From: a virus
Lineage: Duplodnaviria > Heunggongvirae > Uroviricota > Caudoviricetes
IMG/VR virus record: IMGVR_UViG_2563366845_000004
Location: 1-37,872 of that record
Length of the DNA: 37,872 bases
Strand: one strand, 5' to 3'
Of this stretch, positions 1 through 9,071 are shown one piece after another (within the stretch, counting starts at the first letter, position 1; every line of letters begins with the position of its first letter). Under the pieces are notes generated by a model. The model saw only the letters and a list, made by a program, of their open reading frames with translations, made no database searches and had not been told where the DNA came from. Both the position numbers and the translations under genes were made by a program.

Positions 1-1053
1 TTACGGGGTAATGCCAACCGCTGCCGCCACTTTGTCGCCATTTGGTAACGTTGCCAGTGGATTGAAACGGAGCGCCGTTTCCAAATGATCCGGTGCCAGA
101 TGCGCATAACGCATAGTCATTTTTATATCGTGATGTCCGAGAATTTTTTGTAAGGCCAAGATGTTTCCACCCGACATCATGAAGTGCGCCGCAAACGTAT
201 GGCGCAGAACGTGTGTCAGTTGACCGCGAGGGAGAACGATAGACGTTTTTTCCATCACGGATAAAAATTGAAAATAGCAGTCTGTGAAGAAATTGAACCC
301 ATCGAGCGCCATGATCTCTTCATAAAGCTCTTTACTGATAGGGATGCTTCTGTTTTTCTTACCCTTCGTTCTCACAAAGGTGATTCGGTACTTGGTGACC
401 TGTGAGCGAGTAAGATTGATTGCTTCTCGCCAACGTGCACCTGTACTTAGACATATTTTTACCACCAGTGCCAGAATTGGGTTCTGACGTTTGCAGTCAG
501 ACAGTAATTCGATAATCTGCTCATGTGTAAGCCATGCCATTTCCTTTTCTGCGATAGTGAATTTGCGCATCTTCTCTAATGGGTTTGGAAGTGTCCATTC
601 ACCCAGGCGGGAAAGTTCTCTGAAAACGCTGCTTAGATGGCTTTGCTCCAGGTTAACAGTAACTGGGCTTGCTCCTTTCTTCCATTTTTCACTGAAGTAG
701 ATTTCACCAGTAAGGCGTTTATCGCGATAGTGAGCAAACATTTTTGAGGTGAGATCAGTTGCAAGGGGATTTCCCAAGGCGTCAACCATCAACAGCAGCT
801 TGTTGTAGACATGCTGTCCGGCAGTAAGAGATTTGCCATGTAATTTGAACCATAGCTCAACCATATCTTTCAGTGTCCGACGATCCACTGATTCGCCCAG
901 CCAGGGCTTTGCTTCTATTTCCCCCATGGTGTATCGCTCGAAGGCCAGTGCTTCGCCTTTGGTGGCGAATTGTTTACGCACACGGCGTCCGCTACGTCCG
1001 GCGGGGTAACATTCGCAAAGCCATTTCCCTGTGGTTAGTTTTCGTACTGCCAT
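1..1053 (-). CDS. int: Tyrosine recombinase / phage integrase (P2/186 family)
   Basis: 350-aa ORF; C-terminal catalytic region with ...HVLRHTFA...HHDIKMTMRYAHL... typical of the lambda/P2 integrase family; first gene inside attL. Confidence 0.9.
   Translation of the reverse strand: MAVRKLTTGKWLCECYPAGRSGRRVRKQFATKGEALAFERYTMGEIEAKPWLGESVDRRTLKDMVELWFKLHGKSLTAGQHVYNKLLLMVDALGNPLATDLTSKMFAHYRDKRLTGEIYFSEKWKKGASPVTVNLEQSHLSSVFRELSRLGEWTLPNPLEKMRKFTIAEKEMAWLTHEQIIELLSDCKRQNPILALVVKICLSTGARWREAINLTRSQVTKYRITFVRTKGKKNRSIPISKELYEEIMALDGFNFFTDCYFQFLSVMEKTSIVLPRGQLTHVLRHTFAAHFMMSGGNILALQKILGHHDIKMTMRYAHLAPDHLETALRFNPLATLPNGDKVAAAVGITP
19..41. repeat. attL core (CGCTGCCGCCACTTTGTCGCCAT), lying inside the 3' end of int
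   Basis: Matches 35018..35040 at 22 of 23 positions; the two copies bracket the whole prophage. Confidence 0.6.
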
Positions 1054-1057
1054 AAAA

Positions 1058-1077
1058 AGCCCTCATATCAGAGGGCT
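1058..1077 (-). promoter_or_regulatory. Stem-loop directly upstream of the int start codon (possible attenuator or RBS-sequestering hairpin)
   Basis: agccctc-atatca-gagggct inverted repeat (7-bp stem); on the minus strand it is followed by TTTT and then the int ATG, and the likely int Shine-Dalgarno (GAGGG) sits in the 3' arm. Confidence 0.3.
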
Positions 1078-1138
1078 AAATTTAACTGTATATTTAAACA
1101 GTTATCAATGTATGTTTAGGATGAAATAAACATTGGCC

Positions 1139-2128
1139 TTACTCCTGTGCTTTTTCAGCGGTACTTGGCTTTAGTTTTTCTTTGGTTGAATCCCATAAAG
1201 ATTGGATTCCCGGAGGGAGTTCTGTTTTGTCAGAAAATGCAGAGTTACCAGACATATTCCAGTCTTTAAAGACTAACACAGCATCTTCTTTTGTTGACGT
1301 GGAACCATAAATTTGCAGGAATACTTGCCCAAACATTAGTGCATGTCTTCTATCTTTTCTCAAAATTGATTCATGGGTATATTTTTTAGAGTTTCCAAGG
1401 CAAATATATGCTAGCCAAGAAAGAATGGAAATACCAATTAAACCACGTGTGAAAAAATAAAATAGCTCAAAGCCTTTAACATTGTTGAAGTCAATTGTGG
1501 CGTAGAGTGTATAAAATGATGCACATACAGCAAGTAGCCCGAAAATGCAGCCAGTAAAAGCCCATACTTGCGACATTTTAATGAAATATAAGTCATCTGA
1601 ACTTAGTTCACTTTTAACGCTATCGACATATCCTGGTATTTTCTCATCAATCCTTTCTTGTTGTACTCGGCTTTGTAATTCGCTGTTAGATGCTTCAAGT
1701 TGCTTTATTCTAGATACGGCTTGCTCAATAATTGCTTCTTTTTCAGAATTTAGTTTTTCTAAATTTTCATTCCGAAGATGTAACGTAGCTTTGGACTCTT
1801 CAGCCTCCAATAAACGTTTGGTATATGATCGCATTATCTCTCGAAGATGTTTTTGTTCTTTTATTAATTCATCTATCTTGTTGTTTTCATTAATAAAAAT
1901 ATCTCCAACTTTATCGCTGTAGTTCATTTTTTCTTGCTGGGTTAATTTCCAGTAGTATTCTCTGAATTTATCAATTTCACCTTTTTTTAATAAGTCGATT
2001 AAGTAGGCGCGCTCATTTTCATTAAATTTATGCGGATTTTCATTTAAAATATTATAAAGATCTTTCCATTCGCAATTAACTTTTTCAACATAATCGATGT
2101 TTTCATTTTTTTTATTTTCAGAATTCAT
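1139..2128 (-). CDS. Hypothetical coiled-coil / multi-pass membrane protein (lysogeny-operon moron; candidate superinfection exclusion or abortive-infection protein)
   Basis: ORF 1139..2206; probable start ATG at 2128 (MNSENKK...) with AGGAA RBS, 10 nt after the repressor stop codon. K/E-rich heptad-like N-terminal region, then three hydrophobic helices (e.g. VWAFTGCIFGLLAVCASFYTLY, LIGISILSWLAYICLG). Strongly AT-rich compared with neighbours. Confidence 0.6.
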   Translation of the reverse strand: MNSENKKNENIDYVEKVNCEWKDLYNILNENPHKFNENERAYLIDLLKKGEIDKFREYYWKLTQQEKMNYSDKVGDIFINENNKIDELIKEQKHLREIMRSYTKRLLEAEESKATLHLRNENLEKLNSEKEAIIEQAVSRIKQLEASNSELQSRVQQERIDEKIPGYVDSVKSELSSDDLYFIKMSQVWAFTGCIFGLLAVCASFYTLYATIDFNNVKGFELFYFFTRGLIGISILSWLAYICLGNSKKYTHESILRKDRRHALMFGQVFLQIYGSTSTKEDAVLVFKDWNMSGNSAFSDKTELPPGIQSLWDSTKEKLKPSTAEKAQE

Positions 2129-2138
2129 GTATGTTCCT

Positions 2139-3077
2139 TTAAATTTCCTTTGAAAAAACGCAACAACATTTTGCGATGGTTGTAATGTCTTCAAGCTTAC
2201 AAACAAAATCAGTTGTATCTGATGTGATTTTTACTTTTCCAACTGGAATTCTTGTTAATTTTCTTAAACTTACTTTACCTTCAATCTCAATCAACCAACT
2301 ACCATCTGAAACATCATCATATTCTGTATCTGCAATAAAGGTTTTTCCTTCTGCGGTAACTCCAATCGGTTTTTTCAATCCGGAAGGTATAAGCGTCTTG
2401 TCAAATGCTAAGTAGCCTTCATCATGTAATTTACCGTCAATGATTGTTTGGTGTTTAAGTTGGGCTACAGAGCTGGAATTATCGAAAAATTTGGGGCCAT
2501 TGCCGTTTGTGAGCCAGAGTAATGAAGCTCCTGTTTCAAGAGCGCATTGAATGATCCAATCGCTAGGAAACGTGTCTCGTAAGTACCTGTTTGCTACAGT
2601 GCTTTTTGAAACCTGCAAATGGTTTGCTAGGGCTTGTCGGGTGCTAAAGCCGTAGGCTGCGACTAAGCGATCAATTGCCGCCTTCCCTCCTTTATTAGGA
2701 TTTATGCTGGTCTCGATTGGGAACTTTTGGACTGTTGAGTTAGTTCTATCCGGGTCATCAGATTTGGTATGGGCTAAACGTTCATCATTTAATAAAACTG
2801 AGGGTGATTCACAGCTGATTCCTGATGCCAACCAGTCGATAGATGCGCCGGTCTCTATACTGCAAATTATCACCCAGTCAGCAGGAAATGTGTCACGAGC
2901 ATACCTGTTAGCCATCGTGCTTTGTGAGATACCCAGATGATTGCAAAATGCTTGCCGCGAAGTAAAACCATACGCAACAAGTATACGCTCAATTACTTTC
3001 TGTCCCCCACGGTTTTGCATTATTGAAGTTTTTAGACTCTCGCTAACATGGCGAAATGTGTTTTTTTGAGTTGACAT
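2139..3077 (-). CDS. cI: 186 CI-like immunity repressor with tandemly duplicated N-terminal HTH domain
   Basis: 312 aa; two consecutive copies of the CI N-terminal domain (…ERILVAYGFTSRQAFCNHLGISQSTMANRYARDTFPADW…ETGASIDWL… and …DRLVAAYGFSTRQALANHLQVSKSTVANRYLRDTFPSDW…ETGASLLWL…), then a C-terminal region resembling the 186 CI C-terminal domain (SDGSWLIEIEGKVSLRKLT). Divergent from the apl-like gene. Confidence 0.7.
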   Translation of the reverse strand: MSTQKNTFRHVSESLKTSIMQNRGGQKVIERILVAYGFTSRQAFCNHLGISQSTMANRYARDTFPADWVIICSIETGASIDWLASGISCESPSVLLNDERLAHTKSDDPDRTNSTVQKFPIETSINPNKGGKAAIDRLVAAYGFSTRQALANHLQVSKSTVANRYLRDTFPSDWIIQCALETGASLLWLTNGNGPKFFDNSSSVAQLKHQTIIDGKLHDEGYLAFDKTLIPSGLKKPIGVTAEGKTFIADTEYDDVSDGSWLIEIEGKVSLRKLTRIPVGKVKITSDTTDFVCKLEDITTIAKCCCVFSKEI

Positions 3078-3165
3078 AACCGTTATGAGATCCTAATCTC
3101 CGTTTTGTGAAGTTCTGGTCACAATTCAAACCGGCTCACCACAAGCCAATAGGAGATGTTGCATC
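3078..3165. promoter_or_regulatory. Early switch region (pR/pL-type divergent promoters and operators) between repressor and apl-like gene
   Basis: Intergenic region between divergent cI and apl/cox-like genes; contains the short inverted repeat GAGAT-CCTA-ATCTC (3087..3100) and an AGGAG RBS for the rightward gene. Confidence 0.4.
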
Positions 3166-3387
3166 ATGACCCCTAACATTTCAATAACTCTGAATACGCC
3201 ACATGTCACAATTGAGCGTTATAGCGAACTTACTGGTCTTTCAATCGACACAATTAACGATATGCTGGCTGACGGTCGCATCCCTCGGCATCGCCTTCGG
3301 AAAGACAAGAAAAGAGAAAAGGTGATGATCAACCTTGCTGCTCTTACCGTTGATGCACTTACTGATTGCAATGTTGTATTCAACTAG
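3166..3387 (+). CDS. Apl/Cox-like excisionase / early transcriptional regulator (HTH)
   Basis: 73 aa, first rightward gene opposite the repressor; HTH-like segment [22 protein letters not shown]; AGGAG RBS. Confidence 0.6.
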
Positions 3388-3419
3388 TTCCATTTTGGGA
3401 TACATCAGGGGTGTCGACC

Positions 3420-3929
3420 ATGTTTGATTACCAAGTTTCCAAACATCCACATTTTGATGAAGCCTGTCGTGCATTCGCACTGCGCCACAACCTGGTGCAA
3501 CTGGCAGAACGTGCAGGCATGAATGTGCAGATTCTGCGGAACAAGCTGAACCCAGCTCAACCTCATTTATTAACCGCACCAGATATCTGGCTACTTACCG
3601 ATCTGACTGAAGATTCAACGCTGGTAGACGGTTTTCTGGCACAGATTCATTGTCTGCCATGTGTACCGATTAATGAGGTGGCAAAAGAGAAACTGCCACA
3701 TTACGTCATGAGTGCAACCGCAGAGATCGGGCGTGTTGCTGCAGGTGCGGTATCTGGCGATGTAAAAACCAGTGCAGGTCGTCGTGATGCTATCAGCAGC
3801 ATTAACTCTGTAACACGACTGATGGCGTTGGCTGCTGTTTCATTGCAGGCCCGTTTACAGGCTAACCCTGCGATGGCGAGTGCAGTTGATACCGTGACTG
3901 GCCTCGGTGCTTCATTCGGTTTGCTGTGA
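3420..3929 (+). CDS. cII: Phage regulatory protein CII (186 CII-like)
   Basis: ORF 3366..3929; start at [10 protein letters not shown] gives 169 aa, which I recall as the 186 CII length; positioned directly after apl as in 186. Confidence 0.65.
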
Positions 3930-8577: not shown

Positions 8578-8597
8578 TACTGTAAATATAAACAGTG
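8578..8597. promoter_or_regulatory. LexA (SOS) box TACTGTAAATATAAACAGTG upstream of the Tum/DinI-like genes
   Basis: CTGT-N8-ACAG with an AT-rich spacer matches the E. coli LexA consensus; a candidate -35 TTTACA lies at 8555..8560 and an extra ACAGTAT half-site at 8607..8613. Confidence 0.7.
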
Positions 8598-8638: not shown

Positions 8639-8827
8639 ATGCAGGACTATTTTTTGGAGTCTTTGAAGCTCCAGCGCATTGATTTTTTTCTTAAGCTTGT
8701 AGCGGCTAGTGAGTGTAGTGATGAAGAGAAGGGGCTGGCTCTGCAGTGGGTTTCTGAATTGACTGATGAACTCATGGCAAAAATCAGAAGCCACGAATAC
8801 AACCGCTCAATGGATGTCATCAGCTGA
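8639..8827 (+). CDS. Small SOS-regulated protein (possible Tum-like antirepressor N-terminal part)
   Basis: 62 aa, strong AGGAGG RBS, immediately downstream of the LexA box and followed 10 nt later by a DinI-like ORF. Confidence 0.5.
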   Translation: MQDYFLESLKLQRIDFFLKLVAASECSDEEKGLALQWVSELTDELMAKIRSHEYNRSMDVIS

Positions 8828-8837
8828 GGTGACTTTT

Positions 8838-9071
8838 ATGCGCATTGAAATAATGATCGATAAAGAGCAGAAAATTAGCCAGTCTACCCTGGACGCCCTT
8901 GAATCCGAGCTTTACCGCAGTCTGCGCCCCCTGTATCCCAAAACGGTAATTCGTATCCGCAAAGGTAGCTCTAACGGTGTGGAACTGACCGGACTGCAAC
9001 TGGACGAAGAAAGAAAACAAGTGATGAAAATTATGCAGAAGGTGTGGGAAGACGACAGCTGGCTGCATTAA
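8838..9071 (+). CDS. DinI-family protein (DinI/Tum C-terminal-like)
   Basis: 77 aa beginning MRIEIMIDKE... and ending ...QKVWEDDSWLH, matching the DinI fold signature; GAGGTGA RBS. Confidence 0.75.
   Translation: MRIEIMIDKEQKISQSTLDALESELYRSLRPLYPKTVIRIRKGSSNGVELTGLQLDEERKQVMKIMQKVWEDDSWLH

Follow-up and report, generated by a model that had tools for sequence, protein, structure and literature searches.

[quoted passage not shown]

At the start of the window analysed here, the whole stretch of 37,872 nt, lies the lysogeny module of a 186-type prophage (Peduoviridae), in which a gene for a protein of 329 residues, ORF329, separates the repressor gene from the integrase gene. In phage 186 cI abuts int, and in P2 the C and int genes are 115 nt apart with no gene between them, in agreement with the initial annotation, by which neither phage has a gene in this place. 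The genes concerned are listed below; int, ORF329 and CI are all encoded on the minus strand.

1..1053, minus strand: tyrosine integrase gene (int), the downstream neighbour of ORF329
1139..2128, minus strand: ORF329, 329 aa, a CDS of 990 nt with the ATG at 2128 and the stop codon TAA at 1141-1139; accessory gene, proposed member of the CI operon
2129..2138, minus strand: CI-ORF329 spacer of 10 nt (aggaacatac) with the Shine-Dalgarno sequence AGGA at 2138-2135, as read from the sequence
2139..3077, minus strand: 186-type CI repressor gene, recognised by two Pfam Phage_CI_repr matches (two HTH domains), Phage_CI_C and alignment to 186 CI
3166-3387, divergent from CI, ORF329 and int: Cox/Apl-like gene
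3366-3929, divergent from CI, ORF329 and int: cII

With CI divergent from apl/cox and cII, and with int downstream on the CI strand, the module has the layout of a 186-type lysogenic operon. ORF329 begins 10 nt after the CI stop codon (TAA at 2141-2139) and has its own ribosome-binding site, AGGA being placed 6 nt before the ATG; these features, claimed initially, were read directly from the sequence, and RefSeq agrees, as it annotates this CDS of 990 nt in a 96%-identical E. coli prophage. A longer version starting at a TTG at position 2206 was rejected because it overlaps CI and because the homologs begin at the ATG. The gene is also far more AT-rich than int, as had been remarked (GC 0.33, with a GC3 of 0.27; int has 0.47 and the whole window 0.50), and the AT-rich tract extends beyond it, the C-terminal domain of CI likewise having a GC content of 0.33.

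Comparison with PHROGs v4 returned a full-length match to phrog_2628 (E 2.6e-88, 297 bits; residues 22-326 against positions 13-311 of the 314 in the profile), by which ORF329 is placed in this family without annotated function. In Enterobacterales, 167 homologous protein clusters were found, all named 'hypothetical', from the genera Escherichia, Klebsiella, Citrobacter, Salmonella, Enterobacter, Leclercia, Kosakonia, Rahnella, Pectobacterium and Dickeya. Of 5426 complete E. coli genomes, 154 (~3%), CFT073 included, contain a homolog, always as a single copy and always on the chromosome; parts of region 1-3400 (int and CI) match in 1650 of the 5426. Homologs are encoded by 42 viral contigs in IMG/VR, no detectable one was found by tblastn in the 50,697 phage records of INPHARED, and phages 186, P2 and RE-2010 do not carry the gene. 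No literature was found on the RefSeq accession or on phrog_2628. The gene is accessory and not a core 186-family gene of known function. The term 'moron', applied to it initially, overstates a recent acquisition, CI and ORF329 having diverged together (see below).

Conservation is distributed unevenly along the protein. Among 50 homologs, the mean pairwise identity is 20% for residues 1-145 and 61% for residues 146-329, and dN/dS values calculated against close alleles are 0.2-0.4 and 0-0.1 for the same two parts. ORF329 is under purifying selection. Because there are 167 homologous protein clusters and dN/dS is well below 1, it is a real gene and not a chance ORF. Gene-wide positive selection on the head was considered and dropped, as a dN/dS of 0.2-0.4 gives no gene-wide sign of an arms race. 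A head dN/dS below 1 speaks against the anti-phage explanation set out below, and so does the co-divergence of ORF329 with CI, with which a function connected to the repressor itself would be equally consistent.

Two signals were located between ORF329 and int.

1058..1077, minus strand: hairpin AGCCCTC-tgatat-GAGGGCT, after which come a T-run and the int ATG; terminator-like for the putative CI-ORF329 transcript, and sequestering the int Shine-Dalgarno sequence
1079..1108, minus strand: promoter-like site for int; a LexA box, CTGT-N8-ACAG (1086-1101), lies within it

The intergenic fold between ORF329 and int has a z of −4.7, and the stem of the hairpin (1077-1058) is preserved through compensatory changes in related loci. 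The LexA box was considered as a part of the ORF329 cassette and rejected, as it stays ~45-50 nt upstream of int despite 1-2 kb of intervening cargo. At the CI-ORF329 junction, no terminator is conserved across the homologous loci examined. A weak hairpin with T6 in the 3' end of CI (2175-2159), a candidate attenuator, is absent from homologous loci and was rejected as chance. If the pL/pE lysogenic operon annotated in 186 is taken as a guide, ORF329 should be the second gene of the CI operon, and lysogens should produce the protein from the CI transcript.

The gene order around the homologs is constant. Across the 42 IMG/VR contigs and three genomic loci, a 186-type CI lies upstream of the homolog in 45 out of 45 and int lies downstream in 43, the remaining two loci ending at a contig edge. 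Examined singly, seven independent loci of E. coli, Escherichia sp., Dickeya and metagenomic origin, CFT073 and the two most divergent members (38-40% identity) among them, show the same order, with CI and the homolog on one strand and CI-ORF spacers of 11-45 nt. The homolog occurs with single-HTH and double-HTH CI alike. Identity to the window copies declines together for CI and ORF329 (Spearman rho 0.64; the loci are not phylogenetically independent and the value is descriptive only), and int is ~95% identical in many loci whose CI and ORF are ~55% identical. Because CI and ORF329 diverge together while int stays ~95% identical, the two behave as one exchangeable immunity cassette, int being exchanged separately.

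A partnership of this kind could mean that ORF329 has a regulatory or maintenance role for the prophage, for instance by modulating repressor activity or induction from a membrane anchor, or as an addiction-type toxin that is kept in check as long as the prophage is there. Homologs always directly following CI, a divergence that tracks CI with int exchanged independently, and a single AT-rich tract spanning the CI C-terminal domain and ORF329 are all consistent with this, although tight linkage alone predicts the co-divergence. However, the same switch operates in 186, in Fels-2-type phages and in P2, all of which lack ORF329, the homologs accompany CI proteins with one HTH domain as well as those with two, and remote relatives, described below, are unlinked to repressors, their TIR fusions being found in variable chromosomal neighbourhoods. 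We consider a CI-tied regulatory or maintenance role to be quite improbable.

The slot itself holds other cargo. In 34 loci the gap between the homolog and int is 79-92 nt; nine loci contain 0.95-2.0 kb of extra, mostly AT-rich DNA at this place. Encoded there are NTPases of the KAP family, which match PADLOC PDC-S20 (E down to 2.6e-164) and are PifA-like as well, a DUF4145 protein that matches PD-T7-4 (E 7.9e-76), a PDC-M11A/B pair, of which B carries an ASCH domain, and a group II intron reverse transcriptase. In Klebsiella phage 4LV2017 an unrelated gene of 349 aa occupies the same slot. With its known or candidate defence genes, the CI-int slot is a hotspot for defence cargo in these prophages. 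Similarly, a defence hotspot between cI and int was reported for K139-like relatives of P2 by Rousset et al. [quoted passage not shown]

The protein can be divided into the following parts, on the basis of alignments, hydropathy and an AlphaFold2 model.

1904..2128, minus strand: residues 1-75, hypervariable head (alignment A1) with three short helices modelled by AlphaFold2 (21-30, 37-48, 52-68)
1574..1888, minus strand: residues 81-185, long cytosolic coiled-coil-like helix, a stalk of ~105 residues
1499..1573, minus strand: residues 186-210, predicted TM helix 1, from hydropathy and conservation; W189 and G193 are invariant in the close family
1463..1498, minus strand: residues 211-222, short loop, predicted to be periplasmic (positive-inside rule)
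1388..1462, minus strand: residues 223-247, predicted TM helix 2; Y224, R228, G229, G232 and W238 are invariant
1229..1387, minus strand: residues 248-300, conserved basic, His-rich region KKYTHESILRKDRRHALMFGQVFLQIYG ... FKDWNMSGNSAF, predicted to be cytosolic

E, K and N are abundant in the N-terminal half, and AlphaFold2 models residues 81-210 as a single unbroken helix, in keeping with the long K/E-rich coiled coil proposed initially. The last ~35 residues of the stalk helix (150-185, QQERIDEKIPGYVDSVK...DD) are conserved and adjoin the membrane. Hydrophobicity at the level of TM helices is reached in two segments only, ~186-210 and ~223-247, so that the three C-terminal TM helices of the initial annotation had to be reduced to two: segment 262-275 (HALMFGQVFLQIYG) is amphipathic, bears the polar residues that are most highly conserved and is modelled as a cytosolic extension of the TM2 helix. 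H262, A263, G267 and W290 are invariant in all 124 sequences of the superfamily alignment (A3). The AlphaFold2 model, calculated with a deep alignment, has a mean pLDDT of 84, with values >90 over residues 100-280, and consists of a small helical head, a very long helix that runs into TM1, and a return helix, made up of TM2 with the conserved cytosolic segment, that packs against the long one. Because ORF329 has no signal peptide at its N-terminus and six Lys/Arg follow within 18 residues after TM2, both termini are predicted by the positive-inside rule to be cytoplasmic. ORF329 should thus be an inner-membrane protein that exposes only a loop of ~12 residues to the periplasm.

Scans of ORF329 with Pfam, NCBIfam and PADLOC gave coiled-coil noise only (crescentin rod, LeoBC and a sub-threshold DUF2207_C). 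The best match in PADLOC-DB v2.0.0 was LeoBC (E 0.009), over the coiled-coil stretch, and no defence-protein model matched. These negative scans count against an anti-phage function. The conserved part was followed further afield by an exhaustive search of 1.84 billion cluster representatives with a profile of residues 146-329, which returned 456 proteins at E<=1e-3, 278 of them at E<=1e-10. These proteins have about 180-440 aa, and in every case it is their C-terminus that matches. The signature of the module comprises a juxtamembrane helix RIExxxxxYV...L...E, then TM1, a short loop in which a Trp is conserved, and TM2, in which a basic residue is conserved (R228 in ORF329, Lys in the remote-family consensus); to these are added the motifs YxHESxxRxDRxHAIxFGxxYLxxYG and FxxWNIxxxSAF. 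The module corresponds to no entry of Pfam, PADLOC, NCBIfam or the PDB: a sequence-profile search of the PDB showed nothing below E 0.18, and a PADLOC scan of ten remote members nothing better than E 3.5e-4, also over the coiled coil. The remote members bear the public names 'hypothetical' or 'TIR domain-containing protein'.

Elsewhere the module is joined to heads of other kinds. Among 123 remote representatives, the N-terminal heads were identified as TIR_2 in 23 (best E 1.2e-22), EAD11 in 8 (1.3e-29), weakly MgtE_N-like in 4 and DUF4062 in 1. In 76 loci from one-genome-per-species contigs, which span Proteobacteria, Bacteroidota, Planctomycetota, Acidobacteriota, Actinomycetota, Deinococcota, Nitrospirota, Verrucomicrobiota and Myxococcota, TIR_2 heads were found 32 times, HNH heads twice and an EAD11 head once. 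The prophage clade of the superfamily has no TIR at all. No conserved partner gene of the remote relatives was seen in 80 loci; their neighbours are variable, the commonest families being further TIR proteins (7/150) and transposases or integrases, and an HMM built from the heads yielded two likely split genes only. Immune (conflict) systems are characterised by TIR, HNH and effector-associated domains (PMC7159879; 10.64898/2025.12.03.692087). Judged by these partners, the conserved module appears to be an immune-type module, and its link to TIR, EAD11 and HNH is undescribed as far as the searched literature shows. Because TIR and HNH are effectors themselves, the module may serve as an anchor, sensor or scaffold where they are fused to it, and not as the killing part. 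Proteins of 183-201 aa consisting of the domain only also exist, and the module therefore probably acts on its own; these and the EAD11 fusions point to an activity that belongs to the module itself.

Prophage phi-b0847 of CFT073 contains a homolog, and for this reason we also considered a lysogenic-conversion or host-fitness factor unrelated to phages, concerned for instance with envelope physiology or virulence. A multi-gene deletion in phi-b0847, which may include the homolog, spans c0932-c0945, and three loci of the prophage are reported to add to virulence in zebrafish (PMC3573123). However, the same study credits an individual effect to neaT, elsewhere in phi-b0847, and makes no mention of the ORF329 homolog. 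As the partners of the module elsewhere are immune-type domains and its co-tenants in the slot are defence genes, a role in host fitness seems very unlikely to us.

For ORF329 we infer an anti-phage function and an action on the membrane. The explanation that we favour, and to which we give about even confidence, is that it is an anti-phage membrane protein made by the lysogen, whose conserved two-TM module acts on the membrane in abortive infection. The protein would comprise a helical head, a stalk of ~105 residues and a module of ~170 residues (juxtamembrane helix, TM1, loop, TM2 and basic His-rich helices). Expressed together with CI, it would protect the lysogen and the prophage against other phages. 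The variable head and the stalk would set recognition or hold the protein inactive; upon a trigger, the two-helix module would oligomerise and disturb the inner membrane. This disturbance would end the infection by abortive infection or, less likely, by an entry block, the SLATT-type two-TM effectors discussed below serving as a model. In favour of this explanation are the operon-like design of the CI-ORF329 junction, the fixed gene order, the defence cargo of the slot, the immune-type heads and domain-only proteins elsewhere, the contrast in variability between head with stalk and module, and the weak but repeated structural matches to SLATT-annotated proteins. Of the two types of function named initially, superinfection exclusion and abortive infection, the general assignment gains from the defence genes in the slot and from the TIR, EAD11 and HNH heads of distant homologs; an injection blocker facing the periplasm fits less well with a protein whose bulk is cytoplasmic.

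In classical superinfection exclusion an inner-membrane protein blocks the entry of DNA and the cell survives, as with lactococcal Sie2009, Ltp of TP-J34, T4 Imm and HK97 gp15. ORF329 shares with such a protein the repressor-integrase slot of the lysogeny module, a probable co-expression with the repressor, and a membrane location through two predicted TM helices. Within the phage family, glo of K139 is cited as an immunity/exclusion gene (PMC4870250). Against this, only ~12 residues of ORF329 are predicted to be periplasmic, nearly all of the conserved and all of the variable sequence being cytoplasmic, and its distant relatives are equipped with domains that kill or signal in the cytoplasm (TIR, HNH, EAD11), which points to an intracellular response and not to a passive block of entry. 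Classical exclusion is thus unlikely in our judgement; the modelled topology, that of a mostly cytoplasmic protein, would fit an intracellular trigger coupled to a membrane effector better than a periplasm-facing injection blocker.

A more speculative reading is put forward with considerable doubt. The module might represent a new class of membrane immune effectors apart from SLATT, in which the His-rich basic cytosolic face binds a small-molecule signal that in most bacteria comes from the fused TIR, as in a single-chain Thoeris-like system. The 186-type prophages would have captured this module without the TIR and linked its expression to that of the repressor; its head, evolving fast, would either recognise phage proteins directly or allow the prophage to eavesdrop on immune signals of the host.

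If ORF329 does defend lysogens, then an uncharacterised single-gene system would be added to prophages of E. coli, Klebsiella, Salmonella, Citrobacter and Pectobacterium, and the CI-int slot of 186-type phages would stand as a defence hotspot beside the two known ones of P2. A phenotype for the simple prophage version would also open a way into a widespread family of membrane-anchored TIR proteins.

Among known systems, SLATT proteins are the two-TM membrane effectors of CBASS and of type VII Thoeris, where the protein is ThsH (10.64898/2025.12.03.692087; also PMC7159879), and are proposed to form oligomers in the membrane once they bind a nucleotide made by a TIR protein or a cyclase (10.64898/2025.12.03.692087). 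Both SLATT and ORF329 have two TM helices flanked by cytosolic helices (here according to hydropathy and AlphaFold2) and no enzymatic domain of their own, an action through oligomerisation in the membrane is predicted for both, and both are linked to TIR, a likeness that here holds for the superfamily and not for the prophage clade. In a Foldseek comparison with BFVD, five SLATT-annotated proteins were among the top 34, as weak matches (E 0.03-0.55, TM-scores 0.15-0.42), and no hit of any kind reached E 0.001. No Pfam SLATT model matched ORF329 at E<=1, the 123 remote members at E<=1e-4 or the 76 genomic members at E<=1e-3, and none was present among the 25 most frequent of the 27 families found for 50 close members at E<=0.01. 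In contrast to SLATT systems, TIR is here mostly fused within the same polypeptide through the coiled coil and not encoded by a separate gene, and the motifs YxHESxxRxDRxHAIxFG and FxxWNIxxxSAF are specific to the ORF329 family. From sequence and model, the module may be called SLATT-like in architecture, and we do not assign it to SLATT.

The rexA-rexB genes of lambda are co-transcribed with cI and provide a lysogen-expressed exclusion with a membrane component, RexB having four TM helices. ORF329 likewise lies directly downstream of the repressor and is predicted to be a membrane component. However, Rex consists of two proteins, whereas ORF329 is a single gene with two TM helices that would combine a putative sensor and the membrane part, and no similarity to Rex appeared in the PHROG, Pfam and PADLOC scans. 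Lactococcal Sie2009, Ltp of S. thermophilus and Glo of Vibrio K139 share with ORF329 the slot between repressor and integrase and a predicted location in the envelope. No homology to proteins of these types was found; they are small and situated outside the cytoplasm, as periplasmic proteins or lipoproteins, whereas ORF329, with 329 aa, would be almost wholly cytoplasmic except for the membrane hairpin. As in the P2 hotspots old/tin and Z/fun (Rousset et al. 2022), AT-rich variable cargo is found in a Peduoviridae prophage with known or candidate defence genes as co-tenants in relatives, but ORF329 lies between CI and int, whereas those hotspots are situated between A and Q or among the tail genes; the region between integrase and primase has only 8% of the P2 defence systems in the preprint, of 2026, cited above. 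As a prophage-hotspot defence or exclusion gene that would be co-expressed with the repressor, ORF329 belongs to an already known kind; its protein family is uncharacterised and the module unannotated.

An AT-rich tract with a GC content of 0.33 covers both the C-terminal domain of the CI repressor gene (window 2139-2460) and ORF329 (1139-2128), the 329-aa membrane-protein gene that occupies the interval between CI and the integrase gene int, while the N-terminal part of CI has a GC content of 0.445. Across the compared loci, divergence of CI co-varies with that of ORF329 but divergence of int does not. This pattern suggests that the recombination boundary lies at the conserved int promoter. 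This promoter-like site is int's own and is organised as follows:

1053-1108, minus strand: region holding the int promoter-like site, its embedded LexA box and the hairpin
1108-1103, minus strand: -35 element, TTGATA
1101-1086, minus strand: LexA box upstream of int, CTGT-N8-ACAG
1084-1079, minus strand: -10 element, TAAATT
1077-1058, minus strand: hairpin following the promoter-like site, its 3' arm including the int Shine-Dalgarno sequence

A LexA box lies approximately 45-50 nt upstream of int in 39 of 43 related loci, also where other cargo intervenes. The distinct upstream sequences inspected, which range from E. coli to Dickeya, show the full layout of int promoter, LexA box and hairpin again, and changes in the hairpin stem are compensatory; phage 186 has no counterpart of this layout. 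Transcripts initiated at the int promoter would lack the 5' arm of the hairpin and leave the int Shine-Dalgarno sequence free; in a transcript reading through from CI and ORF329 the hairpin would form.

In several of the related prophages, the ORF329 homolog and int are separated by further cargo that occupies this slot:

L115, L121 and L129: KAP NTPases, matching PADLOC PDC-S20
L128: KAP NTPase, assigned from sequence alone
L126: PD-T7-4 (DUF4145)
L122: PDC-M11A and B
L105 and L106: reverse transcriptase of a group II intron, the insertion lying directly upstream of the LexA box

Within the last CI codons (2159-2175, minus strand) lies a weak hairpin that resembles a terminator, with a stem of 5 bp and a T6 run. 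It is probably a chance occurrence because homologous loci do not conserve it.

A second perfect LexA box is present downstream of replication gene A:

8580-8595: perfect LexA box, upstream of the DinI-like ORF
8766-9071, plus strand: DinI-like ORF similar to the 186 Tum antirepressor (41% identity to its C-terminal part, E 9e-24)

Together, these two features indicate that the prophage is probably SOS-inducible through Tum, and int would probably be de-repressed by the same signal.

The window CI comprises 312 aa, whereas that of 186 has 192 aa; it is longer because the Phage_CI_repr helix-turn-helix domain is present twice in tandem, at residues 28-86 and at residues 135-194, and each copy aligns to residues 13-73 of 186 CI. 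The tandem arrangement also occurs in Klebsiella phages, e.g. 4LV2017, and a single-domain CI is retained at homologous loci of Dickeya and some metagenomes. In 4LV2017 (L006), the CI-int slot holds an unrelated hypothetical protein of 349 aa (1851-2900), for which no match was obtained in Pfam or PADLOC, and approximately 770 nt of unannotated DNA separate its gene from int. For phage 186 itself, the record (L135, 1605-2336) states that plasmid-expressed orf97, an SOS-operon gene, 'blocks 186 infection'.
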